From positions 3,913-67,912 of the forward strand of contig JAGVWP010000001.1 of assembly GCA_018304985.1 (NCBI GenBank): 64,000 bases of DNA. The letters are read 5' to 3'. A program made the translations under genes and the position numbers. The notes under the pieces were generated by a model that had not been told where the DNA came from, made no database searches, and saw only the letters and a program-made list of their open reading frames with translations. Positions 5,912-49,983 of this stretch are shown piece by piece. The stretch's first letter is position 1; the number at the start of each line of letters is the position of its first letter. The DNA comes from Candidatus Pacearchaeota archaeon (GTDB lineage: Archaea; Nanobdellota; Nanobdellia; Pacearchaeales; GW2011-AR1).

Positions 5912-5986
5912 AAAAGGATATGTCATAAAAAGAACCTTAGTATTTTAAGAGGAAGTTATTATAGAAGAAACCTTGGTGTCTTCTAT
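5912..5986 (+). repeat. intergenic bipartite palindromic repeat element (aaaagg..cataaaaagaaccttag + ggaagttattatagaagaaaccttggtgtcttctat), copy A
   Basis: Near-identical copy, inverted, at 12571-12648. Related copies occur at 28996-29035, 47546-47626 and 50473-50520. Confidence 0.8.
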
Positions 5987-7602
5987 TACTTATTAACTTT
6001 ATATATCACCACAGCAGGCTGCTGCTGAATTTGGTCGAAGAAAACTATTTTCTGGGGTGTGAGCATAGAACTTAAATTATTATTTGCATAATTTGCGGAT
6101 TCCTGAGTCTGATGCTCGAATGCATGAATTACAATATAATCTGCTTTTTGTACAGATCCTTGAAGATCAGTTATATTCCATACTTCGTATTTCCTTTCTG
6201 AATAATATATTACATAGGGATCAATTCCATCCCCTAAAATAACTGCATCTTTAGGTGTGTTGTCTTTAATCCATAAAAATGCTTCTTTCATCTGAGAGTA
6301 ACTCTGAGCTTTGTTTTTTATCAAATTATTTCCAAAGCTTACATTTGAATAAAGAGCTGTTAAAATAACTAAAATTAAAAATATAATTGCAATATTCTTT
6401 GAATATTTTTTTATTTTATCATAAGCAAAGAAAATACCTGAAGAAGTCATAACTAATATTGATATAAGCGGAAGAATAACATAACGATCTTCAGCAGCCC
6501 GCAACACAAAAATAAAGAATATGAAAGAGAAAATAAAGATTAGAAGAAAGAATAGATTTGATTCCAGTTTCTTTACTTTTAATATAGAATCAAATCCAAG
6601 TACTGTTTCTATAAATATAATGATAAATCCAATTATGAAAAATATCATTAAATTACTTGATAAAATGTTTGAACTAAATGGGTTTATAAAAAATGGACTA
6701 AATCCGAGATAGGGTTTAGGGCTTCCAAAGGTTGAAGCCTGTGGGCTTATATCGTAGGTTATAAAATCCAGTACATAAATAGCTATAGGCTTTCCTTCTG
6801 TACTTTGGGCATAAAGAGATGATGCTGGCAGCAGGCTTCCATAGTTCATTAAGTTAAATATTAAAAATATAATAATTGGCAATACTCCGATAATTCCCCC
6901 TATCCAAAATTGTTTATTTGCTAAGAATTTATGCTTGTGCTTAAGCAATACAAAAACAAGAAAAACAGCCCCTATAATTCCATAAAAATACCTTGTCATT
7001 ATTGCCAGAGATATAAAAAATATCGCCAAAGCAAATTTTTTGGTATTAAAATTCTCGTATGATTTTATAAAAAAGTAAATTGCTAAAAGAGAGAAAAATA
7101 GAGATGGAATATCTGACATTATTCTCATAGTGTAAAATAAATTAATCCATAAAACTGAAAAGATAAAGGATGATAATAAAGCGGTTCTTTTATCATAAAA
7201 CTCTTTAACTATAAGAAAGACAAGATAAACTGATAATATAGATGGAATTATTTCTAATATTAAAAGTATTCCAATATCTGATATGTTTAATTTAAGTAAA
7301 AAAGCCCACATTAATGAAAATAATGGCGGTCTTAGGGCTAACTCGTGAATTATAAATGGGTCATTAGGCCATAAGCCCATGGTTATCTGCTTGGCAATGC
7401 TTCCAAATGCCAAAGAATCCCACCAGTGTGCCTGATCTTTGACAATTGAGAATAAGTAAATTCTTATAATAACTGCCAGAGTTATAATTCCAAACAAAGC
7501 CAGATTATATTTGTCCCTAAGCCATGTTTCCAGCTTTGATTTTTCACTTTTTACATTGGTTTCTTTGCTAGATTCTTTATTAAGCTCTTTTTTATCTTCC
7601 AT
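5986..7602 (-). CDS. GT-C fold glycosyltransferase (GT39/ArnT/PMT-like membrane mannosyltransferase family)
   Basis: 538 aa with many TM helices; an acidic motif sits in the first extracytoplasmic loop; located in the glycan cluster. Confidence 0.55.
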   Translation of the reverse strand: MEDKKELNKESSKETNVKSEKSKLETWLRDKYNLALFGIITLAVIIRIYLFSIVKDQAHWWDSLAFGSIAKQITMGLWPNDPFIIHELALRPPLFSLMWAFLLKLNISDIGILLILEIIPSILSVYLVFLIVKEFYDKRTALLSSFIFSVLWINLFYTMRIMSDIPSLFFSLLAIYFFIKSYENFNTKKFALAIFFISLAIMTRYFYGIIGAVFLVFVLLKHKHKFLANKQFWIGGIIGVLPIIIFLIFNLMNYGSLLPASSLYAQSTEGKPIAIYVLDFITYDISPQASTFGSPKPYLGFSPFFINPFSSNILSSNLMIFFIIGFIIIFIETVLGFDSILKVKKLESNLFFLLIFIFSFIFFIFVLRAAEDRYVILPLISILVMTSSGIFFAYDKIKKYSKNIAIIFLILVILTALYSNVSFGNNLIKNKAQSYSQMKEAFLWIKDNTPKDAVILGDGIDPYVIYYSERKYEVWNITDLQGSVQKADYIVIHAFEHQTQESANYANNNLSSMLTPQKIVFFDQIQQQPAVVIYKVNK

Positions 7603-7684: not shown

Positions 7685-9238
7685 ATGAAAGTTTTATATG
7701 CTCATAAACATCATCCTATAGAACCTTTAGGAGTAGCTTATATATCAAGTTCTATAGCAAGAAGTGGGCATGAATCTAAATTAATGCTTACTCCAAGAAA
7801 TATAGATAAAGCGGTTGAGGAAGTATCAAGAGTTATCGATCAGGAGCATCCAGATATTTTTGCTCAAAGCATAATATTTGGAAGCCACAAATATGCTATT
7901 GACTTAAGTAGAAAAGTTAAAGAAAGATATCCAAAAATTATTAGTTTTCTTGGAGGGCCTGCTCCAACATTTACGCCTGGATTAATTTCAAGGGGATTTG
8001 ATGCTATATGTCGTTATGAAGGAGAAAATCCATTTCTAACTTTCTGTAATAATGTTGAATCTGGAGCAGATGTTGGAAACATCCCAAATATATGGGTTAT
8101 GGAAAATCCAGATTTATATAATACAGAAGTAAGAAAAGTAAAAAAAGTCTTAGATAAAAATGATCTAAATTACAAAAAAGAAAGTGGATATGATCCTCAA
8201 AGAAAAATGTTTGTAAATGATACTGGAGTACTTCTTGAAGATGAAACCTTAGAAAATATTCCATTTCCAGATAGAGAATTATTATATGAACATGAAATGT
8301 ATAGAGATAGTGATATAAAACATTATATGTCTACACGAGGTTGTGCATTTAAATGCTCTTATTGCCACGTACATGTTCAAAATGCTGATAATAAAGGAAA
8401 GGGCAGTCCTGTAAGAAGGAGACAGAATGAATCTGTTGCAGAAGAAGTATTAGCAATTAAGAAAAAATTTGGATCTAAAAATGATTATTTTCAGGATGAT
8501 ATTCATGGAGCTTCTTATAAATTAGAGTTTGCTAAAGAGTATGCAGAAGTTATGGCAGGAGTTTCTCAAAATGGGCACTGCCATGTTAGATTTGATCTTA
8601 TTGCCAAGCATCCAGATATCGCTAAATATCTTGCAAAAGCAGGAATTACTGGAGTTCATGTTGCAATAGAATCTGGGGACGATTATATTAGGAATCATGT
8701 TCATAGAAGAGGAATGACTATAGAAGAAATTCTTAAAGGAGCAAAATATTTACATGATAATGGAATAAAGATGATGACCCAAAATATTTTAGGAGCTGCC
8801 GGAGAAACAAAAGAACAAATGTTGAAAACTTTAGAATTAAACATTGCAGTTAGACCCACCTTTGCTTCTGCATCAATCTTCCAACCGTATCCTGGAACTA
8901 GTGCTTTAGAATATGCAAGAGATCATGGAGTTTTACCTTCAAATAGTGAGGATGAATTAATAGACCTTTTTGGAATGGAAACATTTTATAATAAAACTAT
9001 ACTAATTCAAGATCCTCAACATAAAAGATGGTTAGAACTTTTTCAGAAGTTTTTTGCAATTGCTGTCGCAAATCCTCAAATCTATCAATCTGGAGTTTTA
9101 GATAAAATAATTGCCACTTATCCTAAAGGAGAAGAAGCAAATAAAGAGTTGGAGCATATGTATAGATTACATAGAGCTGAAGCTGATGAAAAACTTTATG
9201 GTGTAAAACTTAAAGAGATAGTTATGGAAGAGAATTAA
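7685..9238 (+). CDS. B12-binding domain radical SAM protein
   Basis: The N-terminal region resembles a cobalamin-binding Rossmann domain. A CAFKCSYC radical-SAM cysteine motif follows. The start is moved to the ATG at 7685 (MKVLYAHK) to remove the overlap with the convergent gene. Confidence 0.75.
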   Translation: MKVLYAHKHHPIEPLGVAYISSSIARSGHESKLMLTPRNIDKAVEEVSRVIDQEHPDIFAQSIIFGSHKYAIDLSRKVKERYPKIISFLGGPAPTFTPGLISRGFDAICRYEGENPFLTFCNNVESGADVGNIPNIWVMENPDLYNTEVRKVKKVLDKNDLNYKKESGYDPQRKMFVNDTGVLLEDETLENIPFPDRELLYEHEMYRDSDIKHYMSTRGCAFKCSYCHVHVQNADNKGKGSPVRRRQNESVAEEVLAIKKKFGSKNDYFQDDIHGASYKLEFAKEYAEVMAGVSQNGHCHVRFDLIAKHPDIAKYLAKAGITGVHVAIESGDDYIRNHVHRRGMTIEEILKGAKYLHDNGIKMMTQNILGAAGETKEQMLKTLELNIAVRPTFASASIFQPYPGTSALEYARDHGVLPSNSEDELIDLFGMETFYNKTILIQDPQHKRWLELFQKFFAIAVANPQIYQSGVLDKIIATYPKGEEANKELEHMYRLHRAEADEKLYGVKLKEIVMEEN

Positions 9239-9249
9239 ATAAAATAATC

Positions 9250-11154
9250 TTACCTTGCAGATTCTATTCTTTCCCAATTATCAACACTTTTAAATTTTTT
9301 AATTTTTGTATTATAAAAAACAAGTATCCACATATATAATCGAGCTAAAATTAATTCCAATGTCCAAAATCCCTCTTTAAATGTAGTTGGATAAGTTATT
9401 ATATGTATAAAACCTTCTAATGTTTCATTTTTAAACGATTTTACTCTAGGAGTAATTTTAGTATCTGCATATTTATCCAGTGTTTCATGAGCTTTAGCAG
9501 TTCTTACTTTTTGTTTTATCCAATCTTTCCAGTTGCTAACATTTTTTACATAAACTCTAGCATTTTCAGCATATCCTATTTTATACCCCTTTTCCCAGAA
9601 ATAATAAGGAATAATTGTGTCCTCCGCAGTATCTAATGGTATCTCTATTTTATTATCTCCCCTAAATGCAAAAAGATATCCAGAACACTCTATAAAAGAA
9701 TTACTTTCAAATGCTTTCATTCTTAACTTATTTGCTGCTTCAAATAAAAAATTGGCCCAATAACCATACTTATCTTTTCTTGATTCTATAGGAACCGGTC
9801 TTCCAGTAACACATCCTATTTCAGGATCTAAGAATAAATTTGTTATTTCTTCAATTACATTATCACTTATAAATACGTCCCCGTCTGTCAATATTAAAAT
9901 ATCCTCTTTTTTTGTATTCTTTATTAACAGATTCAAAGCATACATTTTTCCTTTTCCAGGATCTTTAAATAATTTTATCTCTTTATTATGCTTAGAATAT
10001 TTTTTTGCAATATTCAAAGTTTCCTCGTCAGGAGCAGAGACGAGAATACCATAATCATATTTTGTTTTTTGGTTTAAAGCAGATTCAATTGCTCTGCCGA
10101 TATTTAGTTCTCTAAAAGCAGTTATAATTAATAAAATTTTAAAATTGATCATTTCTTCAATTGATCTAATTATTTCATGTAATGAAATTTTTCCCATGCT
10201 TTTACAATTCCTGCTATAACAGCATAAACAATTTGACTTTGCAATTATTTTTTTACCAAGACCATACATATCTATCTCATGATTTGATGTTGGTCCTATA
10301 AGCACAATTGTTTTCCTTTTCAAGGCAAGAGCAATATGAAGTCCAAGTGTATCCGAGGTTATAAATAAATTGCAAATACTCACTAATGCTGGAAATTCTA
10401 CTAGATCATTTCCACAACCAGTACTAATTATAGGCGCTTTAGCTAATTTAATTACCTCCATATTTCTTGTGGTTTCCTCAGGTCCTCCAAAAAGAAGAAT
10501 TTTTGCATTAAATTTATTATGAATTTCTTCAATTAATTTAACAGTCATTTTTATTGGCAGATCCTTGGGCCATCTTTCCCCAGATCCAGTATTAATACCT
10601 ACAATTAAATCGCTTCTGGACAAATTATGTCTCCTTAAAAAATCATTTGCAATAATTCTTTGGTCAGTATTTAATCTTAAAAATGGTTCATATTTTTCAA
10701 AATCTTTTATATCTATAATTGCAGACATAAGCTGTCTATGGGTCTTAATATTCTCTTTTTTTAAAATATCTGCTTTCTTTTTTCCATATTTACTAATTAA
10801 AGAGGTATTAAACCATTCTTCTGTCTCTGATGTATAAATTATTTTATTGTCTTTATCCAAAAAAGCCCCTAATAACTTTTTTGTATTTAAAAAAGAAACA
10901 AATTTTGCACTATCTTCATCTTCTTCAAGATTAATAACAAGATCAAAATTAATACTTTTCAGTTTTTCTTTATCTTCCTCTGCAACTATTTGATAAACAT
11001 AAGGATTATTAACAAACAAAGAAATTGCTTTTTTACTAGTAACCCAAAAAACCTTGGGGTCTTTATTTTTATACTTATCTTTTAAAGCTTGGGCTAAAAA
11101 ACTTGTTCTTACCACATCTCCCAAAGCTCCTGTCTTTATAATTAATATATTCAT
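9250..11154 (-). CDS. fusion of a GT9 (ADP-heptose:acceptor heptosyltransferase-like) domain and a GT2 domain
   Basis: The N-terminus MNILIIKTGALGDVVRTSFLAQALK matches the RfaC/RfaF family signature. The middle has GGPEE...SGCGNDL...SDTLGLHIA motifs. The C-terminal ~290 aa are GT2-like with DGD. Confidence 0.65.
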   Translation of the reverse strand: MNILIIKTGALGDVVRTSFLAQALKDKYKNKDPKVFWVTSKKAISLFVNNPYVYQIVAEEDKEKLKSINFDLVINLEEDEDSAKFVSFLNTKKLLGAFLDKDNKIIYTSETEEWFNTSLISKYGKKKADILKKENIKTHRQLMSAIIDIKDFEKYEPFLRLNTDQRIIANDFLRRHNLSRSDLIVGINTGSGERWPKDLPIKMTVKLIEEIHNKFNAKILLFGGPEETTRNMEVIKLAKAPIISTGCGNDLVEFPALVSICNLFITSDTLGLHIALALKRKTIVLIGPTSNHEIDMYGLGKKIIAKSNCLCCYSRNCKSMGKISLHEIIRSIEEMINFKILLIITAFRELNIGRAIESALNQKTKYDYGILVSAPDEETLNIAKKYSKHNKEIKLFKDPGKGKMYALNLLIKNTKKEDILILTDGDVFISDNVIEEITNLFLDPEIGCVTGRPVPIESRKDKYGYWANFLFEAANKLRMKAFESNSFIECSGYLFAFRGDNKIEIPLDTAEDTIIPYYFWEKGYKIGYAENARVYVKNVSNWKDWIKQKVRTAKAHETLDKYADTKITPRVKSFKNETLEGFIHIITYPTTFKEGFWTLELILARLYMWILVFYNTKIKKFKSVDNWERIESAR

Positions 11155-11248
11155 AGTAAAAGATGCTTATAGGTATTTAAAAACATTTAGACTCCATAAA
11201 TATGTTATATATAACAATATTTAAATAATTATTTAAAATAAGCTATAA

Positions 11249-11746
11249 ATGATAGAATTAGAAAAAAAACTACTCTCAATAGAAGAAATTAGTGAAATAA
11301 TTAACCCATTAAAAAATATTGGTAAGATAATAGTAACTACTAGCGGAAGTTTTGATATATTGCATTCAGCCCATGTCCATTTTCTTCAAAAAGCTAAAAA
11401 AGAGGGGGATGTGCTTATAGTTTTGCTGAATACTGATAGTTCAATCAAAAGAAATAAAGGAGAAAAAAGACCAATAGTCCCTGAAGATGAAAGAGCTAAA
11501 ATGCTTGTCTCTTTAGAATGTGTTGATTATGTTGTGATTTTTAATGAAGATAAGCCATTAAAATTACTGGAGATGATAAAGCCAAATATACATGTAAAAG
11601 GTGGAAGCTTTATTCCTGAAAGAATTAAAGAAGAAAAAGAACTCTTGGACTCATGGGAAGGAAAATATAAAACCTTTGAATTAGAAGAAGGATATTCCAC
11701 AACAAATATTATTCAAACTATATTAGAAAAATATAACAACATATAA
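11249..11746 (+). CDS. D-glycero-beta-D-manno-heptose-1-phosphate adenylyltransferase-like (HldE domain II / RfaE-II cytidylyltransferase-like)
   Basis: SGSFDILHSAHVHFL...NTDSSIKRNKGEKRPIVPEDER...VDYVVIFNEDKP...VKGG closely parallels the E. coli HldE C-terminal domain. Confidence 0.7.
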   Translation: MIELEKKLLSIEEISEIINPLKNIGKIIVTTSGSFDILHSAHVHFLQKAKKEGDVLIVLLNTDSSIKRNKGEKRPIVPEDERAKMLVSLECVDYVVIFNEDKPLKLLEMIKPNIHVKGGSFIPERIKEEKELLDSWEGKYKTFELEEGYSTTNIIQTILEKYNNI

Positions 11747-11749
11747 AAA

Positions 11750-12421
11750 ATGCCCGAAAAAATGAAAATAAAATTTCATGCAACGGAAAATCAATATAAA
11801 CCCGTAGTGAGATATTTGAGAAATTACAGAAAAAAAGCAAAACTTATTGAAATTGGTGCCGGAGGTAGAACACTGCAAAAATTTCTTCCAGAAAATATCT
11901 CTTATTATAGCCTGGATTTTGACCCAAACTATGGCAAAGCTTTTTTCAAAGCAAAGCATGATTATCATTTTGACTTAGATAAAGGCAAACTTCCAGTTAA
12001 AGACAAATCTTATGATATTATTGTCTGCCTTGAGACTTTAGAGCATGTTATGTATCCCCAGAAAGTTGTGGATGAAATGAAAAGAGTTGCTAAAGACGAT
12101 GCAATCTTCTTTATATCAATTCCCAATGAGTATAATATCCTTCTTAGGTTGTATTATCTTTTTGGAAAAAAGCATAAAATGGATGAGACTTTTATGGTTG
12201 TTGAGAAGCATCTACATATACACAAGCCAAGAGTCAAGGATATTATAGGATTCTATAACAAGAACTTTACTATAAAAAAACTAGATTATATCTGGCAGTC
12301 AAGAAGCAGCATGTATTCAAAAATGGTTTATTTTATAGACAGAATAATTGATATTTTTGCAAAGATATATCCCAGTTTATTTGCAAAGATAATTTTAGTG
12401 AGAGCTGAGAAGAAAATTTAG
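11750..12421 (+). CDS. class I SAM-dependent methyltransferase
   Basis: IEIGAGG and LETLEHV motifs. Confidence 0.6.
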   Translation: MPEKMKIKFHATENQYKPVVRYLRNYRKKAKLIEIGAGGRTLQKFLPENISYYSLDFDPNYGKAFFKAKHDYHFDLDKGKLPVKDKSYDIIVCLETLEHVMYPQKVVDEMKRVAKDDAIFFISIPNEYNILLRLYYLFGKKHKMDETFMVVEKHLHIHKPRVKDIIGFYNKNFTIKKLDYIWQSRSSMYSKMVYFIDRIIDIFAKIYPSLFAKIILVRAEKKI

Positions 12422-28790: not shown

Positions 28791-28839
28791 TGTCCCCACG
28801 AGATAATTAACTTATTAGATAAAGAAATAAATAAAAAAA

Positions 28840-28952
<113 letters not shown>

Positions 28953-29168: not shown

Positions 29169-29247
29169 GCGCCTGTAGCTCAGCCTGGAATCAAAGAGCA
29201 GGTCCGTCCTAAGGACAAGGTCGTAGGTTCAAATCCTACCAGGCGCA
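29169..29247 (+). tRNA. tRNA-Arg (anticodon CCT) with an unusually long D region (about 5 extra nt)
   Basis: Acceptor GCGCCTG/CAGGCGC, anticodon loop GTCCTAA, T arm GTAGGTTCAAATCCTAC. The D loop is 14 nt instead of 7-11. Confidence 0.6.
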
Positions 29248-32738: not shown

Positions 32739-32936
32739 TTAGAATTTTTTGAACTTAGTTGTTAATTCCAAAAGATCAACCTGTCCTAGAAAAGCTGCTC
32801 TGCAGCAATATCTTTCCAATCCCAGCTCATCCATTACTTTTCCAGGCTCTTCGCCAGATTCTACACGCTTTTTAAAATCGTCGTGCAAATGTGCTATCGG
32901 ACGACCGCAACTCATACACCTTATGGGACAAATCAT
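32739..32936 (-). CDS. rpoN: DNA-directed RNA polymerase subunit N (Rpb10 homologue)
   Basis: MICPIRCMSCGRPIA...LERYCCRAAFLGQVDLLE has the CxxC...CC zinc motif and Rpb10 length (65 aa from the internal ATG; the track ORF starts at an upstream GTG). Confidence 0.85.
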   Translation of the reverse strand: MICPIRCMSCGRPIAHLHDDFKKRVESGEEPGKVMDELGLERYCCRAAFLGQVDLLELTTKFKKF

Positions 32937-32951
32937 TGTATATTTATCCAC

Positions 32952-33896
32952 TTAAGGATATTTATAAAGCTTTTGATTCATAGTTTCTAAATTTTTAGTA
33001 CATGAATTCACAATATTCAAAAAAGATTTAATTTCTTCCTGCTTTCCTAAATTAAGAACCCAAATAGGTTTACGTTTATCTCCTGGAGGATATTTTCTTA
33101 AATTCAACCTTGGATGGAATCCAAGCCCCTCGATTAATTGTTTAGTTAATTGAATAGTGTTTTCTTCACAACTTACAATTATTAATATAAGATAGCTTCT
33201 ATTATATCTTTTATCATGATTTATGCTCAAACATCCTTCACTTTCATGTATGCCTTTTAAAAAATAAATTGGATAATCTAAGGCGATTTTTCTTATATCT
33301 TCTATAGTCAGGTTATTAAACCAATTATAAAATAACTTTGATGAAGCAATAGTTCTCCAATATTTTTTCTTTTGAAAAATATTTGGATTTAGACCTATCT
33401 TTTTTAAGGTGTCATAAAAACACTTACAAAAATTATAATCCAAAACATCTAATCCTATGAAAGAGTTATTTTTGTATTTATATGTCCAAGCATCACCAAG
33501 TAGAACTCCCAAGATATAAGATATATCGGGTGAGGAAGAAAGATTTGGATTTAGAGTGTTTCCAGGATCCCTCCATTTCAAAAATGAAGTTGATTTTCTT
33601 AATTTAATATTATTTTTTAAAAGATTTTCTCTTATTGTCCATTGTGAGCAATTATATTTTTTTGCTATATCCTTAAAAGATAAATTTTTATTTTCATAAA
33701 AATCTACTAAATCGTCTTTTTTAATATTTATCTTTATTTCATAAAGCCTTCTTTTTATTTTATACTCTATAAGCCTTCTTCTAATTGTTTCTGGGTTACA
33801 TCTATATATTTTAGAAATATCGCTTGTGGATTTTCTTTTTTTCAAATAAAGTCCCTTAAGTTTGCTTCTTGGGATTGTTATTTTTTCATTTTTCAT
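32952..33896 (-). CDS. free-standing LAGLIDADG-family homing-endonuclease-like protein with two N-terminal HTH modules
   Basis: Two LAGLIDADG-type motifs, YILGVLLGDAW and YFLKGIHESEGCL, about 90 aa apart. The N-terminus carries two resolvase-like HTH repeats. Confidence 0.6.
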   Translation of the reverse strand: MKNEKITIPRSKLKGLYLKKRKSTSDISKIYRCNPETIRRRLIEYKIKRRLYEIKINIKKDDLVDFYENKNLSFKDIAKKYNCSQWTIRENLLKNNIKLRKSTSFLKWRDPGNTLNPNLSSSPDISYILGVLLGDAWTYKYKNNSFIGLDVLDYNFCKCFYDTLKKIGLNPNIFQKKKYWRTIASSKLFYNWFNNLTIEDIRKIALDYPIYFLKGIHESEGCLSINHDKRYNRSYLILIIVSCEENTIQLTKQLIEGLGFHPRLNLRKYPPGDKRKPIWVLNLGKQEEIKSFLNIVNSCTKNLETMNQKLYKYP

Positions 33897-33961
33897 TAAT
33901 CTTTAGATCTCAAAATGGAGTCGAGGCATCACAGAATAAAAATAAAGGTATAAAAATATAA

Positions 33962-34795
33962 TTATAATCTGCTAAATAATCCTAATACCTCTTCAAGTTT
34001 TGAAGCAGGTAGTTCTCCTGTTCTGACACCTTCAACAATTTTTTTATGTTCTTCAATTTCTTGAGGAGTGTATTTTTTCACGTTTTCAGTTTCAGTAGTT
34101 TTAGAAACTTTTTGTGAAGCGCCTTCGGCGCTTACTTCACGCACCCCACGAACCCTATCGCCGCTATGAAGGTCCCTGCTGCCGCCATTAAGCACAGACC
34201 TGCTGTCAAGCCTGCTGAACCACAGCTGTCTAGCAAAAGGATAATTTTGTTTATTAACATAATCTTTATCAACTGCCCAAACAGGCATTTTCATTATTTC
34301 TGGTTCTCCATTTCTTAACCAATTTCCATAGGCCTGTGCTTTATCTGAATCTCCTGCTCCAAAAGCCCAGATAGTTAACGCTTCTTCATTAAACCTATTT
34401 GTTGGAATTCCTATATTATGCAAAGGAAAGTCAACAGAATCTGCTAAAGCTTTTTCAATAGCTTCTTTAGAAGGATAAAATTCTTTAATATCCCTATGTG
34501 CCTGTGTTGCTTCTTCAGCTGAATATAAAATTGGAGAATTTCTAACTAATTTAGTTCCTTTTCTAGGAATGTAAAGAACTCCTTCTCTTACATAATTTCC
34601 CTTTGTAGAAACATTATGCTGTTTACCTTGAATCATTCTTTGCTCAACATTTACAGGCAAAGAAATAATATCATAATTTTCACTTTCTAATTCTGCTTGA
34701 GCTAAATCAAAAGGAGCATAAACTATTCCAGATTGAAGTTTACTTGGAACTATATCCACATTTACTTCATACTTTGTTTGAGTTGCTGTTGCCAT
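33962..34795 (-). CDS. hypothetical protein (no TM, locally GC-rich coding patch)
   Basis: 277-aa ORF whose composition is unlike its neighbours. About 160 bp of ~50% GC at 34095-34260. A TATA-like element lies upstream. Confidence 0.45.
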   Translation of the reverse strand: MATATQTKYEVNVDIVPSKLQSGIVYAPFDLAQAELESENYDIISLPVNVEQRMIQGKQHNVSTKGNYVREGVLYIPRKGTKLVRNSPILYSAEEATQAHRDIKEFYPSKEAIEKALADSVDFPLHNIGIPTNRFNEEALTIWAFGAGDSDKAQAYGNWLRNGEPEIMKMPVWAVDKDYVNKQNYPFARQLWFSRLDSRSVLNGGSRDLHSGDRVRGVREVSAEGASQKVSKTTETENVKKYTPQEIEEHKKIVEGVRTGELPASKLEEVLGLFSRL

Positions 34796-34912
34796 ATTTT
34801 TTCTAGAAAAGTAGACTATTTAAACTTTTCTATTAATATTAATTTATTAGTAGTAACAATAAAAAGGTTTATAAGTAATTATTTATACTAATTAAAATAA
34901 GAGTAAGTAAAA

Positions 34913-36760: not shown

Positions 36761-37420
36761 TTATTTTTTAGCATTTTTATCAATTTGCTTATTTAACAAA
36801 TTCCAAAGCTTATCTAAAACATATTCAGGAATAACCACTTTATTTTTATTTGTTAAATTTTCAAATGTTGTTCTAAGTTCTAAAATAGCTCTTTCACTTC
36901 CTAAATTAACCTGATTTTCAGCTTCATTAATTATCAAATCCCAATTTATTTTTGAATTATTTATTATATTCAATATATCCAGTTCGTCTTTCTCTCTTCC
37001 AGTAACTGCTTTCATTATGATTAGATCATGAATATCTGCAATTTTTATTATTAAATTATCATTAAATTGCCGAATAGTATCCTCGGATCTTTTTTGCATC
37101 TGCTTTGAAAAAGTCGAGGTTATAACTTTTAACAAAAATAAATCAATCCTTGCATCATCTAACTTAATTAAAATAGGTTTATTGCTTCTATCTCCGTAAA
37201 CTACCTTTGCATCCATTTCACCATACCCTAAAGATTCTGCAGCTTTCTTAAAAGCCTGCCTGTCTTTATCGTTTGTGAAAATTAAATCTATGTCTAATGA
37301 ATTTGCTTTTAATCCAAGAAACATAAGCGCTGTCCCGCCTATTGCATATATTGTAATTTTTTTGTCAAGTCTCTTCGCTATTGATGTAAATAAATTTGTT
37401 TGATCTACTAAAGATATCAT
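36761..37420 (-). CDS. Pol-beta-superfamily nucleotidyltransferase (AbiEii-like toxin candidate)
   Basis: AIGGTALMFLGLKANSLDIDL fits the GG-x12-DhD minimal NTase motif; 4-nt overlap with the upstream wHTH gene. Confidence 0.5.
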   Translation of the reverse strand: MISLVDQTNLFTSIAKRLDKKITIYAIGGTALMFLGLKANSLDIDLIFTNDKDRQAFKKAAESLGYGEMDAKVVYGDRSNKPILIKLDDARIDLFLLKVITSTFSKQMQKRSEDTIRQFNDNLIIKIADIHDLIIMKAVTGREKDELDILNIINNSKINWDLIINEAENQVNLGSERAILELRTTFENLTNKNKVVIPEYVLDKLWNLLNKQIDKNAKK

Positions 37421-38016
37421 AATTCATATTCCTCCAAATCGGCAGTATTTAACGGAATATAAACTTTCCATTTTTTTTCAAGGTCGGTAAAACTTTTAGA
37501 ACTAAATCCTTCAATAAAATACTTGTATTTATCAGATTTTTTTGGTGTTGCAAGAGTCTTGAATCTTTTAGGCATTCTTCTTATCTTTGGAATTACAAGC
37601 CTTGCAATATCATACAATATTGCTACTTCTCTTACCAAATCTTCTTTTTTAGCAAGTTTGTATAAACTGCTCCAGTCTTTTAATCCCCTAAATAAAGAAA
37701 GCGAGGCGATAAGAAACCTTACATCTCTGCGATTTATTGCATAAATCAGGGTTTCTTCTATACTGGGAATTTTGCCATAAATAATATGATTTCCATAGTC
37801 AGCTAATTTTATTCCAGCTGTAGGAGCATATTTATTTATAATATCTATATAACTTATGCCTTTAGCCGGATTTGTAACATAAATATAATACACTCTCATT
37901 TTGCTAGAAGTGTATTTAGTTTTAACATATCCTTTCTTTCGTAATTTATACACAATATAAACTGCTCTAGCCCTGTCTATATCTAACTGGTCTTGGATTG
38001 TCTGAATTGTGTGCAT
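37417..38016 (-). CDS. winged-HTH transcriptional regulator (AbiEi-like antitoxin candidate)
   Basis: Taking the internal ATG at 38016 (MHTIQ...) gives a 200-aa wHTH protein. It is translationally coupled to the NTase gene. Confidence 0.45.
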   Translation of the reverse strand: MHTIQTIQDQLDIDRARAVYIVYKLRKKGYVKTKYTSSKMRVYYIYVTNPAKGISYIDIINKYAPTAGIKLADYGNHIIYGKIPSIEETLIYAINRRDVRFLIASLSLFRGLKDWSSLYKLAKKEDLVREVAILYDIARLVIPKIRRMPKRFKTLATPKKSDKYKYFIEGFSSKSFTDLEKKWKVYIPLNTADLEEYEL

Positions 38017-38060
38017 TCCTTCTAATTTTTTAGCTAATTCGAATAATTTGGTTTTTATAA

Positions 38061-38143
38061 TTAAATGTATGCGAACTAATATATAAACTTTTCTATTATT
38101 TAAGCTAAATGTTAAATGTATGAGCAATAATATATAAATAAAG
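38061..38143. repeat. tandem direct repeat (2 x ~28 bp: ttaaatgtatgMgaaMtaatatataaa) in the divergent promoter region
   Basis: Copies at 38061-38088 and 38112-38143. Confidence 0.7.
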
Positions 38144-46622: not shown

Positions 46623-47165
46623 ATGATCAGAAAACATAAAAAATTCAGCAAACCAAGAACAAGATTCGATTCAACAAGAATTGAGGAAGAAGATAAAATT
46701 GTTGAAAGATATGGATTGAAGAATAAGAGAGAAATATGGAAAGCAAAAGGTAAACTGGAGAGAATAAGAAATATTGCAAAAAAGTTAATAGATTCCAGCC
46801 AGGAAGAACAGGAAAAATTCCTGGTTAAGTTAAAAAAACAGGGATTTGATGTCAAAACAACTGTTGATGTTCTTGCTTTAACTGAAGAAGAAATTTTAAA
46901 GAGAAGGCTTCAAACAATTGTGTACAATAAAAAGCTTTCAACAACTCCAAAAGGAGCAAGGCAATTGATAACTCATAAAAATATATTAGTTAATGGAAGA
47001 ATTGTCAATATTCCTTCATACATGGTTGAAGTTGATGAAGAAAATATGGTAAAATTAGCTCATAAAAAAAGAATTGTAAAACCTGTTTCTCAAGAAATTC
47101 CAGAAGAGATTATTGTTGAAAATAAAGAAGAAATTATTCAAATTGGAGAGATAGAAAATGGCTAA
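46623..47165 (+). CDS. rps4: 30S ribosomal protein S4
   Basis: RRLQTIVY...GARQLITHKNILVNGRIVNIPSYMV S4 domain. Confidence 0.85.
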   Translation: MIRKHKKFSKPRTRFDSTRIEEEDKIVERYGLKNKREIWKAKGKLERIRNIAKKLIDSSQEEQEKFLVKLKKQGFDVKTTVDVLALTEEEILKRRLQTIVYNKKLSTTPKGARQLITHKNILVNGRIVNIPSYMVEVDEENMVKLAHKKRIVKPVSQEIPEEIIVENKEEIIQIGEIENG

Positions 47166-47547
47166 AGATGAAAAAGATCATACTGGAATTGCATATGTTT
47201 ATGCTACATTCAATAATACAATTGTACATATAACTGATTTATCCGGAAATACAATTGCAAGATGCTCTGGAGGCATGGTTACAAAGCAGGACAGGCTGAA
47301 AGCAAATCCAACAACAGCAATGTTTATAGCTAAAAAAATCGGGGAAGAGATAAAAGAGCTAGGAGTAAACAGTTTATATGTAAGAATGAGGGGAAAAACT
47401 GGAAGCACTGGACTGGGTCCTGGAGCACATAGCGTTGTTAAAACATTATCAAAAGACGGATTTAAAATATTGAGCATCTCTGAAACTACAAGAGTTCCAA
47501 GAGGCGGACCAAAGGCAAAGGGTGGAAGGAGAGGAAGAAGAGTATAA
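47158..47547 (+). CDS. rps11: 30S ribosomal protein S11
   Basis: GIAYVYATFNNTIVHITDLSGNTIARCSGG. Confidence 0.9.
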   Translation: MAKDEKDHTGIAYVYATFNNTIVHITDLSGNTIARCSGGMVTKQDRLKANPTTAMFIAKKIGEEIKELGVNSLYVRMRGKTGSTGLGPGAHSVVKTLSKDGFKILSISETTRVPRGGPKAKGGRRGRRV

Positions 47548-47626
47548 AGACAACCAATGGTTTTCTTTATGAAACTTTCCTTTTAGATGGACCAAGGTTT
47601 TCATTATGGGTTTTCCCTTAAGAAAG
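47546..47626 (-). repeat. same repeat family, copy between rps11 and rpoD
   Basis: agacaaccaatggttttctttatgaaactttcctttt + ccaaggtttt. Confidence 0.65.
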
Positions 47627-47667
47627 CAAATAATAAATTTAAATACCAAAAATAACTTAAATTTAAA

Positions 47668-48438
47668 ATGAAAAACGAACAAAAAGAAAAAAACAAAGCA
47701 AGTTTTATAATTGACGGAGATGAAACATTAGCAAATGCTATAAGAAGAAGTTCTAATGAAATAACAATTGCAGCAATTGATGAAGTTGAATTTCGTAAAA
47801 ATGATTCAGCGCTTTATGATGAAATTCTATCCCATAGACTTGGATTAATTCCACTAAAAGAGAATAGAAAATTAAATGAAATAGACAAATGCAGCTGTGA
47901 TGGCAAAGGGTGCAATAAATGCCAGGTTCAAGTTTCCTTAAAAGCTAAAGGACCATGCACTGTTTATTCTGGAAGTTTAAAGGGAGATGTTGAAGTAATT
48001 TATGGAAAAATGCCAATTACCTTGTTAGAAAAAGATCAGGAATTAGAATTTGTGGCTTTTGTAAGGCTTGGCAAGACTGTAAAGCACGCAAAGTTTTCCC
48101 CAGGATTGGTTTTTTACAGGCATATTTCTGAAATAACTGTAAAAAATGCGGATCAGGCAGAGAAGATATTTGAAAAATTAAAGGCAAGCATATTAAATCC
48201 TCCAAAAGGAAAGATAAAAAATGGAGAAACTTATCAATGCAGTGAAGATGTGGATTATATTGAGACATTTATTGAATCTGCTGAAAATAAAAGTAAACTA
48301 ATAGAAGTTAAATATGGTGAAGAGCTTGTATTTATTATTGAATCTTGGGGCCAGTTAGAACCTAAGGAAATTTTTACAGAATCTGTTAAGGCGCTTGAAT
48401 CAAACCTTAAAGAAGTTTTAAAAACCATTAAGAAATAA
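47668..48438 (+). CDS. rpoD: DNA-directed RNA polymerase subunit D
   Basis: FIIDGDETLANAIRR...HRLGLIPL, plus the CSCDGKGCNKCQ Fe-S cysteine cluster. Confidence 0.85.
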   Translation: MKNEQKEKNKASFIIDGDETLANAIRRSSNEITIAAIDEVEFRKNDSALYDEILSHRLGLIPLKENRKLNEIDKCSCDGKGCNKCQVQVSLKAKGPCTVYSGSLKGDVEVIYGKMPITLLEKDQELEFVAFVRLGKTVKHAKFSPGLVFYRHISEITVKNADQAEKIFEKLKASILNPPKGKIKNGETYQCSEDVDYIETFIESAENKSKLIEVKYGEELVFIIESWGQLEPKEIFTESVKALESNLKEVLKTIKK

Positions 48439-48447
48439 TCAGTGTAT

Positions 48448-48531
48448 GCGGGAATGTCAGAGCGGTCAAATGAACCACGTTAAGGCCGTGGTGGCTTAGT
48501 GCCTGCGAAGGTTCGAATCCTTCTTTCCGCA
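48448..48531 (+). tRNA. tRNA-Leu, class II; anticodon reads AAG by position (atypical A34)
   Basis: Acceptor GCGGGAA/TTTCCGC, anticodon stem CCACG/CGTGG with loop TTAAGGC, long variable arm, T arm GAAGGTTCGAATCCTTC. Confidence 0.75.
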
Positions 48532-48563
48532 TACATAAATATCTCAATAAAATAATAAATTAA

Positions 48564-48947
48564 TTGAAGATGAACGGAATAAAAAAAGCAAAAGTTGAGA
48601 AGAAATTAAGAAGAAAAACAAATCCAGAGCTAGTTGAGACTATAATTGCTGCTAAAAAAAATCCTAAATGGCTGGAAATTGCAAACTTAATTTCAAGGCC
48701 AAAAAGAAAACAGATTTCTGTTAATCTTGATCAGATAAATGAAAAAGTGAAAGATGGTGAAAGAGTTATTGTTCCTGGCAAGATTTTAGGTGAGGGACAA
48801 TTAAATAAGAAAATTGCTTTAGTTGGATTTTCATTTTCACAAAGCGCAAAGGAAAAATTAAAGAAAAACAAGATTGAAACATTAGAACTTTTAAATGAAA
48901 TAAAGAAAAATCCTGAAGCTAAAAATATTAAAATAATAAGAGAATAA
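48564..48947 (+). CDS. rpl18e: 50S ribosomal protein L18e
   Basis: Sequence pattern and its position upstream of L13-S9. Confidence 0.75.
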   Translation: MKMNGIKKAKVEKKLRRKTNPELVETIIAAKKNPKWLEIANLISRPKRKQISVNLDQINEKVKDGERVIVPGKILGEGQLNKKIALVGFSFSQSAKEKLKKNKIETLELLNEIKKNPEAKNIKIIRE

Positions 48948-48988
48948 TAAAATGAACCTTTAAAAAAGGTTCCCAAAATCATATAAAG

Positions 48989-49396
48989 ATGACGAATGAA
49001 ATTATTATTGATGGCAAAAATGCAACAATGGGAAGATTAGCAAGCTATAGCGCTAAACAGGCTTTGCTTGGAAAGAAAGTTGCTATTGTAAATTCAGAGG
49101 AGGTTGTAATAATTGGAGATAAAAGAAATATTGCTGAAAAATATGCAAGATTAGTTAAAAAGGGCGGTAGCAGCCAGAAAGGGCCAAAAATAATAAGAAC
49201 CCCTGAAAGAATTTTGAAGAGAGTTATAAGAGGGATGTTGCCCCATGATAAAGGCAGAGGAGAGGAAGCATTAGACAGAATAAGATGCTATAATCAAATA
49301 CCTGAAGAGTATAAAGAAACTAAAAAAATTCATGCAGGCAAGGAGAAAAGAGGAAAGTTTATCACATTAAAAGAGCTTGTATCCCTAATAAAATAA
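48989..49396 (+). CDS. rpl13: 50S ribosomal protein L13
   Basis: IIDGKNATMGRLASYSAKQALLGKKVAIVN. Confidence 0.85.
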   Translation: MTNEIIIDGKNATMGRLASYSAKQALLGKKVAIVNSEEVVIIGDKRNIAEKYARLVKKGGSSQKGPKIIRTPERILKRVIRGMLPHDKGRGEEALDRIRCYNQIPEEYKETKKIHAGKEKRGKFITLKELVSLIK

Positions 49397-49575
49397 AAAA
49401 TAATTTAAAACAAAATCAAGATAAGAATATGAAGATGAGTAAATTAAACATAAAAAACCATGTAAAAGTATTGCAGTATTTTCAGAATAAAAGTTTAGCT
49501 AAACACACAATATCTTTACCTAATTTAAATGAGAAAGCTACTGATATTTTATGTAGTGTAAACTAAATAATAAAA

Positions 49576-49983
49576 ATGACAGAAAAATTAATTATTGTGA
49601 GTGGAAAAAGAAAAAGAAGCATAGCTAAAGCAATAATTTCTAGTGGAACTGGAAAAATAACTGTAAATAATATTCCATACCAAAATCTTTATCATATACA
49701 TAGATTAACAATTGAAGAGCCTATAAGAATTGCAAAAAAAACACTTAAAGATTTTAATTATGATATAAAAGTTAAAGCAAAAGGCGGCGGAAGAGAAGGG
49801 CAAATGGATGCTGCAAGGCTTGCAATTTCAAAAGCTCTTGTTGCTAAAACAAAATCTGAAACATTAAGAAAAGCTTTCTTAAAATATGACAAACATCTTC
49901 TTGTTGCAGATGTAAGAAGAAAAGAGGCTTATAAGCCTGGAGATTCTAAGGCAAGAGCAAAGAGACAGAAGAGTTATAGATAA
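49576..49983 (+). CDS. rps9: 30S ribosomal protein S9
   Basis: SGKRKRSIAKA...GGG..GQ..A.RLAI..AL...SYR C-terminus. Confidence 0.85.
   Translation: MTEKLIIVSGKRKRSIAKAIISSGTGKITVNNIPYQNLYHIHRLTIEEPIRIAKKTLKDFNYDIKVKAKGGGREGQMDAARLAISKALVAKTKSETLRKAFLKYDKHLLVADVRRKEAYKPGDSKARAKRQKSYR

Follow-up and report, generated by a model that had tools for sequence, protein, structure and literature searches.

LAGLIDADG homing endonucleases cut long (14-40 bp) targets site-specifically in alleles that do not carry their gene. Free-standing homing endonucleases have been well studied in phages and organelles; to our knowledge, they have hardly been described in cellular archaeal chromosomes. Here we analyse the locus of a candidate, the gene of a double-motif LAGLIDADG protein of 314 amino acids (aa) that lies directly upstream of rpoN (RNA polymerase subunit N/Rpb10) in a 64-kb stretch of DNA from a Candidatus Pacearchaeota archaeon; this whole stretch of 64,000 nucleotides (nt) is called the window below. 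The window is DPANN archaeal sequence with an overall GC content of about 30% (mean 29.7%, SD 5.5%), and three of its minus-strand genes, at 33962-34795, 32952-33896 and 32739-32936, follow one another in the order 277-aa gene, LAGLIDADG gene and rpoN. We suggest, with a probability of roughly 0.55, that the LAGLIDADG gene is a free-standing homing endonuclease that homes to the 5' flank of rpoN.

In its nuclease core, the protein resembles I-DmoI, a monomeric LAGLIDADG enzyme that is encoded in an intron of the Desulfurococcus mobilis 23S rRNA and has no extra DNA-binding domain. The core has the same fold and size, both catalytic acids align, and both proteins are archaeal; the 314-aa protein differs in being free-standing, in carrying about 110 extra N-terminal residues that form two helix-turn-helix (HTH) modules, in its identity of about 22%, and in the location of its gene, which is beside the 5' flank of a protein-coding gene and not in rDNA. 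WhiA, a bacterial transcription factor, also unites a double LAGLIDADG scaffold and an HTH domain in one protein. WhiA has lost the catalytic acids, has its HTH at the C-terminus and is near-universal in its lineage, whereas the family of the 314-aa protein keeps the acids, carries its HTHs in tandem at the N-terminus and occurs only sporadically; the degenerate active site and the lineage-wide conservation that mark WhiA were not found here. In its genomic setting the gene is closer to the free-standing Seg and Mob endonucleases of T4-like phages, the agents of "intronless homing", which are likewise intergenic and polymorphic in presence or absence between close relatives, join a nuclease domain to HTH-type modules, are flanked by a conversion-like tract and leave the promoter of the essential downstream gene in place (PMC2988022). 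Free-standing endonucleases of this kind lie in the intergenic space between conserved genes and move with co-conversion of the flank (PMC2988022). The phage enzymes are of the GIY-YIG or HNH type and reside in virus genomes; the present family is of the LAGLIDADG type, resides in cellular archaeal chromosomes and has kept to one locus across at least three DPANN lineages, and its homing is putative.

The endonuclease gene has the following parts (ORF, open reading frame; AF2, AlphaFold2).

32952..33896, minus strand: free-standing HTH-HTH-LAGLIDADG endonuclease gene, 314 aa (ORF; stop codon TAA at 32952-32954)
33765..33869, minus strand: HTH module 1, residues 10-44 (three helices in the AF2 model; CNxETIRRRL conserved in the family)
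33615..33719, minus strand: HTH module 2, residues 60-94 (three helices in the AF2 model; CSQWTIRxNL conserved in the family)
33009..33530, minus strand: double LAGLIDADG core, residues 123-296 (two alpha-beta-beta-alpha-beta-beta-alpha halves in the AF2 model)
Codon 33492-33494, minus strand: D135 of motif 1, YILGVLLGDAW (in register with I-DmoI in the profile alignment)
Codon 33237-33239, minus strand: E220 of motif 2, FLKGIHESEGC (in register with I-DmoI in the profile alignment)

The AF2 model has a predicted local distance difference test score (pLDDT) of 87.8. Its best matches among solved structures are those of I-DmoI (Foldseek E 1.7e-9, TMt 0.63-0.71), followed in the PDB search by other archaeal intron or intein LAGLIDADG enzymes such as I-Tsp061I and PI-PfuI. 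The family profile aligns with I-DmoI (E 1.7e-8) and places D135 on D21 and E220 on E117, the catalytic acids of that enzyme; in the family alignment D135 is present in 19 of 20 members and E220 in all 20. The model and the profile alignment uphold the double-motif protein with tandem HTH modules that an earlier note on this DNA had described, and both acids of the LAGLIDADG motifs, which it had proposed to check, are retained. Identity between the two HTH modules is 41%. Pfam returns a weak LAGLIDADG_3 match, several HTH families and a weak LAGLIDADG_WhiA match; PHROG 4645 ("endonuclease") matches the full length of the protein (9.6e-15), phage HNH endonuclease PHROGs match the tandem HTH pair with their non-catalytic, DNA-binding part, and viral LAGLIDADG proteins come out on top of a BFVD search with the endonuclease. 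Pfam and the ORF map revealed no Hint (intein) domain and no interrupted host ORF around the gene. As the earlier note held, it is an independent ORF outside any intron or intein, and its product would be classed by sequence as "F-" (free-standing) and not as I- or PI-. Given the fold, the catalytic acids and the kinship to endonucleases, the protein is predicted to have every trait expected of an active, modular homing endonuclease, in which the N-terminal HTH modules probably extend DNA recognition. Several other proteins (P0272, P0273, P0277, P0286 and others, 700-1100 aa) carry 6-9 tandem copies of the endonuclease's HTH module.

The family is strictly linked to rpoN. Loci were drawn from public contigs, GTDB genomes and JGI metagenomes, and rpoN was scored with an RpoN hidden Markov model. 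In members at 41% identity or more with contig room downstream, rpoN follows the match on its strand at a distance of -4 to +62 nt. Besides the window, 14 further distinct loci have the endonuclease directly 5' of rpoN, and at least three upstream contexts occur.

Endonuclease loci with adjoining rpoN: L036, L037, L039, L009, L041/L015, L042, L043, L045/48, L047, L049, L017, L012/18/50, L054
Upstream neighbour S9, the canonical operon position: L012, L017, L046, L047 (Woese- and Nanoarchaeota)
Upstream neighbour a divergently transcribed ATP-binding cassette (ABC) transporter ATPase gene: L039, L041, L042 (Pacearchaeota)
Upstream neighbour the 277-aa gene in addition: window only
Upstream neighbour unrelated genes: L009, L045/48

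The sole broken pair (L038, 2076-2957) was considered as a counterexample, an endonuclease without rpoN; it is explained by an rve-type (IS481/IS3-like) transposase gene that lies between the two genes, at a distance of 10 nt from the endonuclease stop. Relatives of 36% identity or lower were never seen to adjoin rpoN; many of them have one HTH, and some stand on IMG/VR viral contigs beside capsid-like genes. Among 5.8 billion proteins the endonuclease has 24 homologous clusters, against at least 655 for RpoN. An exhaustive profile search gave about six representatives (50% identity) of the tight clade, which nests in a broad HTH-LAGLIDADG superfamily (464 representatives at E <= 1e-30). IMG/VR lacks the tight clade and has only relatives of about 30% identity, and viral carriage of the clade is therefore not supported by that database; the family of the 277-aa neighbour is missing there as well. 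One family member bears the generic NCBI label "LAGLIDADG family homing endonuclease", and literature searches returned nothing on a LAGLIDADG lineage tied to rpoN. Within a few kb of rpoN, DPANN contigs also have free-standing LAGLIDADG genes that are unrelated to this family (L009 5916-6578; L123 6810-7679; L015 9127-9981, directly upstream of SecD/F), and intergenic LAGLIDADG genes may be common in DPANN genomes.

The site is empty in the closest relatives. In the nearest RpoN relatives of the window, the ABC gene and rpoN are divergent and 58 to 95 bp apart, with neither the endonuclease nor the 277-aa gene between them; RpoN identity to the window is 92% for L032 and L033, 82% for L035 and 80% for L034. 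Further empty sites are L123 (which has a small unrelated ORF there), L122 (rpoN behind a P-type ATPase gene) and the right arm of L016 (ABC gene beside rpoN). No endonuclease remnants were found at the empty sites by maximally sensitive hmmsearch of six-frame translations. The endonuclease thus occupies a fixed intergenic site beside a conserved gene and is polymorphic in its presence, with 14 further filled loci and six distinct empty sites. L016 (contig ANAN16-1_SAMN03202998 scaffold_3460) has an apparent inverted duplication at 5948-6730 and two rpoN genes; we rejected it as a "double rpoN" locus, as the assembly is chimeric: two Pacearchaeota genomes (73% nt identity), one with the endonuclease and one without it, are fused at a 5S rRNA gene that follows rpoN.

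Eight distinct Pacearchaeota genomes, some carrying the endonuclease and some lacking it, have the ABC gene beside rpoN. Since this arrangement is also found at empty sites, the placement of rpoN is a lineage trait and not an effect of insertion; on gene order, the separation of rpoN from S9 is an arrangement shared by Pacearchaeota and independent of the endonuclease. In Woese- and Nanoarchaeota the endonuclease also stands between S9 and rpoN, and it is therefore the endonuclease that follows rpoN, not the reverse.

The junction between endonuclease and rpoN has three elements.

32739..32936, minus strand: rpoN (RNA polymerase subunit N/Rpb10, 65 aa; Pfam RNA_pol_N 6e-23)
32901..32936, minus strand: divergent tract, nt 1-36 of rpoN (a candidate for co-conversion or for immunity changes)
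32960..32973, minus strand: rpoN element resembling a B recognition element (BRE) and TATA box, AAAGCTTTATAAAT, within the last codons of the LAGLIDADG ORF and about 28 nt 5' of the rpoN ATG

By blastn, the window and L032 are 91% identical through the ABC gene to 34910, and 91% identical again from 32900 to the rpoN stop. Between 34910 and 32900 the window has about 2 kb extra, which comprises the 277-aa gene with its promoter and then the endonuclease. Identity breaks inside rpoN: the tract has 16 mismatches in 36 positions (56% identity), against 15 in the remaining 162 nt of the gene (Fisher p = 2.8e-6), and the changes include codon-family switches (Ser AGT/TCT, Arg AGG/CGT). By its sequence the divergent segment looks like a gene-conversion tract. 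Compared by eye, the 5' rpoN segment of L032 is nearer to other endonuclease-less alleles than is that of the window, and the comparison points weakly to the window, rather than L032, as the carrier of an imported 5' segment.

We take the ATG at 32936 as the start of rpoN, since with it the protein regains the canonical N-terminus (MICPIRCMSCG, pattern MI.P.RC..CG) with Cys7 and Cys10, the first Cys pair of the zinc site; the resulting 65 aa are the length common to all relatives. The 58-aa rpoN of public gene calls (also in L001-L006) begins at Met13 and loses Cys7 and Cys10, and on this alignment these calls are too short, the conserved start being 32936. A GTG at 32951 abuts the LAGLIDADG stop, as the earlier note had it. 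The spacer from that stop to the ATG, which it put at 12 nt, is 15 nt; apart from this length, its sequence-level statements hold as a whole. AAAGCTTTATAAAT aligns with AAAGCTTTTTAAAC of the endonuclease-less L032 at the same distance from the rpoN ATG. It falls in a C-terminal extension of the window's endonuclease ORF, an arrangement shared by L015, in which a similar BRE/TATA-like element, CTTTTATAAAT, lies within the 3' extension of the endonuclease ORF. From the alignment with L032 and the likeness to L015, the insertion point therefore lies just 5' of the rpoN core promoter. With this putative promoter, rpoN probably keeps its own, nearly leaderless, transcription start.

We propose that the endonuclease would cut chromosomes that lack its gene, within or beside the conserved rpoN 5' end, and that the break would be mended from an endonuclease-bearing copy. 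The gene would be copied in along with a short flank, which in the window would comprise the promoter of rpoN and ~36 nt from the start of the gene. The converted flank would make the new allele immune to renewed cutting, and rpoN's own BRE/TATA, inside the last endonuclease codons, would keep the essential gene expressed. We prefer homing because the active site is intact, the DNA-binding modules are of the phage type, the site is fixed in varied contexts, the spread is sporadic with clean empty sites, and the conversion-like tract in rpoN is sharp; these five observations match the predictions of intronless homing by a free-standing endonuclease (PMC2988022).

All 15 distinct endonuclease ORFs are intact and under purifying selection: nonsynonymous variation (pN) is far below synonymous (pS), with dN/dS of 0.06-0.25 and synonymous sites near saturation. 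By RpoN similarity, lineages with and without the endonuclease interleave. The window RpoN is 92% identical to an endonuclease-less allele and at most 69% identical to any endonuclease-linked RpoN, and the L041 RpoN is equally close to the empty L016 arm and to its nearest endonuclease-linked relative. Such interleaving requires repeated gain or loss. Several observations weigh against homing. No donor of the 36-nt tract was found (best match 67%), the candidate co-conversion tract comes from a single close pair with and without the endonuclease (the window and L032), and the search for a diagnostic substitution yielded none: the two types of allele are not told apart consistently by any base change at the 5' end of rpoN. 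The 277-aa gene is also within the inserted block, so the event is not a clean single-gene insertion. There are no degenerate copies among the 15 distinct loci, of which a purely selfish element would be expected to leave some, although locus retrieval relied on intact motifs and was biased against pseudogenes. Pairwise identities of endonuclease and RpoN co-vary (Mantel r = 0.71, p = 2e-4), and the pair has therefore long been inherited together, which also fits a host function. The fold, the catalytic residues, the linkage to rpoN, the empty sites in the nearest relatives, the purifying selection and the identity break in rpoN are observed; that the enzyme cuts, where its target lies, and that the gene was gained here and not lost in the relatives are inferred.

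Several of these observations would be expected if the LAGLIDADG protein were domesticated, as a factor that binds DNA sequence-specifically, may still cut or nick it, and has a host role tied to rpoN. It could regulate the promoter of rpoN or of a neighbour, or be an operon partner, and the linkage would then reflect co-expression and not homing. The strong purifying selection over deep divergence, the 15 intact ORFs with no pseudogene seen, and the co-divergence with RpoN all agree with this, as do the retention of the pair through upstream rearrangements and the way in which the ORF overlaps or abuts the promoter or start of rpoN (-4 to +62 nt). There is also the precedent of WhiA, a LAGLIDADG protein with an HTH that acts as a regulator, and its weak Pfam match here. 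The gene is missing, however, in the closest relatives and in most DPANN rpoN loci, and is therefore not needed for rpoN function; both catalytic acids are kept, unlike in WhiA, the closest full-length profile relatives are viral endonucleases, and domestication does not predict the identity break at the rpoN 5' end. We regard it as the main rival of homing, possible but on balance unlikely.

The tight linkage and co-divergence of endonuclease and RpoN could also mean that the two genes travel as a mobile cassette, with replacement of the whole of rpoN by marker exclusion or gene drive, and free-standing endonucleases typically co-convert the markers beside them (PMC2988022). In the window, however, rpoN departs from the resident type in its first ~36 nt only; the other 162 nt, some four-fifths of the gene at its 3' end, are 91% identical, and the tract therefore ended inside rpoN with no whole-gene replacement here, which makes a cassette improbable. 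The earlier note took a different course and had the LAGLIDADG and 277-aa genes, as a mobile or foreign insertion, move or capture rpoN from an L13-S9-rpoN operon. It was right that rpoN stands apart from the L13-S9 operon in the window (a convergent gene, not rpoN, stands behind S9 at 49983) and that the two genes are an insertion relative to L032, the closest relative, and the pair of endonuclease and rpoN is indeed found in several contexts. Relocation or capture is contradicted by the endonuclease-less Pacearchaeota that share the ABC-rpoN arrangement (L032, L034, L035, L123 and the right arm of L016) and by the canonical S9-rpoN position, which hosts the endonuclease too. The rest of rpoN is 91% identical to that of an endonuclease-less relative, which makes it a resident and not cargo, and L032 has a homologue of the 277-aa gene with a homologous promoter 4 kb away. 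GC content at third codon positions (GC3) is ordinary for the window in both inserted genes (z about -0.8), and neither therefore looks recently foreign by codon usage; we rejected foreign origin by composition, as only the variable-region patch described below is GC-rich. Conservation of gene order in relatives, which the earlier note saw as speaking against its model, was found for the endonuclease-rpoN pair and not for the three-gene block. We consider movement or capture of rpoN very improbable.

The 277-aa neighbour has a history of its own, and its features are as follows (DGR, diversity-generating retroelement; IMH, initiation of mutagenic homing).

33962..34795, minus strand: AvpA-like DGR variable protein, 277 aa, C-type lectin fold with a C-terminal two-helix tail (AF2 model, PDB match)
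34134..34237, minus strand: DGR variable region, residues ~187-221 (85% nt identity to the patch of the L032 paralogue)
34140-34155, minus strand: IMH-like GC-rich end of the variable region, GGGTTCGTGGGGTGCG
34117..34133, minus strand: hairpin AAGCGCC-GAA-GGCGCTT (perfect 7-bp stem just 3' of the variable region, within the coding sequence)

The protein matches NCBI MBS3091816.1 (locus tag J4466_00195 of a Candidatus Pacearchaeota archaeon) at every residue, is encoded on public contigs of up to 167 kb and has no Pfam match. Its AF2 model (pLDDT 91) has a single PDB match at E <= 0.001, AvpA (5ioo_A; E 1.1e-8, TMt 0.67). AvpA has an internal variable region, and a hairpin/cruciform lies within the coding region of a disordered linker (PMC5006420). 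The 277-aa protein shares with it the C-type lectin fold, an internal variable region (about residues 185-215), a two-helix C-terminal extension of about 45 residues, and the reverse transcriptase and template repeat that stand beside family members; the homologues P0037 (57%) and P0041 (53%) are directly upstream of RVT_1 reverse transcriptases. The hairpin at 34117-34133, placed as in AvpA, encodes SAEGAS, just after which pLDDT falls below 50. The 277-aa protein differs from AvpA in its low identity (about 15%), and in that neither a reverse transcriptase nor a template repeat is present in the 64-kb window (no RT-like ORF with YxDD; blastn of the patch found only itself) and its variable region shows no differences among the public contigs with the gene. 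Members of its cluster differ only outside the variable region, in a comparison that looked contigs up by the exact protein and so was biased against variants. The window copy may be a remote or currently idle DGR target.

The patch itself had struck the earlier note, as had the composition of the protein, and both observations stand. Stretches of 120 nt at 50% GC occur in the 64-kb window only within 34076-34260 (maximum 59%), and the share of F+Y+M+I+N+K in the protein is the lowest among 58 ORFs (z = -2.4). Their reading as a sign of foreign origin does not: its family numbers more than 160 homologues among Pace-, Woese- and Nanoarchaeota (DPANN), its GC3 is native, and the variable region accounts for the patch. 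Rfam gave no match there at the gathering threshold, so that we dropped a known RNA as the explanation. Between the window and the L032 paralogue the patch is 85% identical in nt and the proteins are 37% (alignment A3) or 35% (tblastn) identical, and the mismatches in the patch fall on codon positions 1, 2 and 3 in the numbers 7, 8 and 1. In L120, the variable region (6539-6620) differs from the template repeat (6954-7035) mostly at template adenines, as read by eye, and the window patch is homologous to both. On the lectin fold, the homologues beside reverse transcriptases, the codon-position pattern and the homology to the L120 repeats, the protein is an AvpA-like DGR target, as judged from model and sequence, and the GC-rich patch is by sequence its variable region with an IMH-like end and a hairpin, not foreign DNA. 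In L120 the DGR reverse transcriptase also adjoins a CDC48/AAA gene with a LAGLIDADG_3 intein (8155-11811).

The flanking ABC gene is 91% identical between window and L032, although the 277-aa gene and its L032 homologue align at the DNA level in two patches only, the promoter and 5' end (window 34763-34877, L032 1093-1207; 76% nt identity) and the variable region (window 34117-34235, L032 1774-1894; 85%). Following two indels of 1 nt each, the L032 copy terminates within the patch. These data suggest that the two copies are paralogues served by similar template repeats, or the product of mosaic recombination. The 277-aa gene stands beside the endonuclease in the window's lineage only; by this distribution it is functionally unrelated to the endonuclease, and a functional link from adjacency is without support.

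Elsewhere in the window, the operon of ribosomal protein and RNA polymerase genes has the following position.

47158-49983, plus strand: S11-rpoD-tRNA(Leu)-L18e-L13-S9 operon; the next gene after S9 is convergent and is not rpoN

The spacer between L13 and S9 in this operon (49397-49575, 180 bp) contains an ORF of about 45 codons; in L012 and L017, L13 and S9 abut or overlap. Rfam reports a tRNA at 29169-29247 on the plus strand (53.9 bits), between tRNA-Leu and tRNA-Gly, that ARAGORN does not call, and a 5S rRNA gene at 28839-28951 neighbours it. At 36761-38127 on the minus strand, genes for a DUF6036 nucleotidyltransferase (219 aa) and a TrmB-like HTH protein (236 aa) overlap by 4 nt; the pair, which is rearranged in L032, may be a toxin-antitoxin-like two-gene module.

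What is new here is a small free-standing LAGLIDADG clade dedicated to the 5' flank of rpoN across DPANN, together with its occupied and vacant sites and a candidate tract of conversion; AvpA-type DGR targets had been published, and the generic homing-endonuclease label existed at NCBI. Two annotations are corrected: rpoN starts at the ATG at 32936 (65 aa, not 58), and the 277-aa protein, listed as "hypothetical", is the variable protein of a DGR. Capture of rpoN by foreign DNA drops out as an explanation. Tentatively, the lineage may be more than selfish: we can imagine a long-lived element dedicated to rpoN, acting as a gene drive for linked RNA polymerase subunit alleles in DPANN populations or as a co-opted regulator or insulator of the rpoN promoter that remains active as a nuclease; if so, it would represent an intermediate stage in the domestication of a homing endonuclease in cellular archaeal chromosomes. 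If the homing reading is true, the clade would provide a ready-made set of natural filled and empty sites at a single essential gene in DPANN archaea, suited to the study of how an element persists, how it avoids harm at an essential promoter and how it shuffles alleles of a core transcription gene, and the family would offer new compact meganuclease scaffolds with a tandem-HTH reader.

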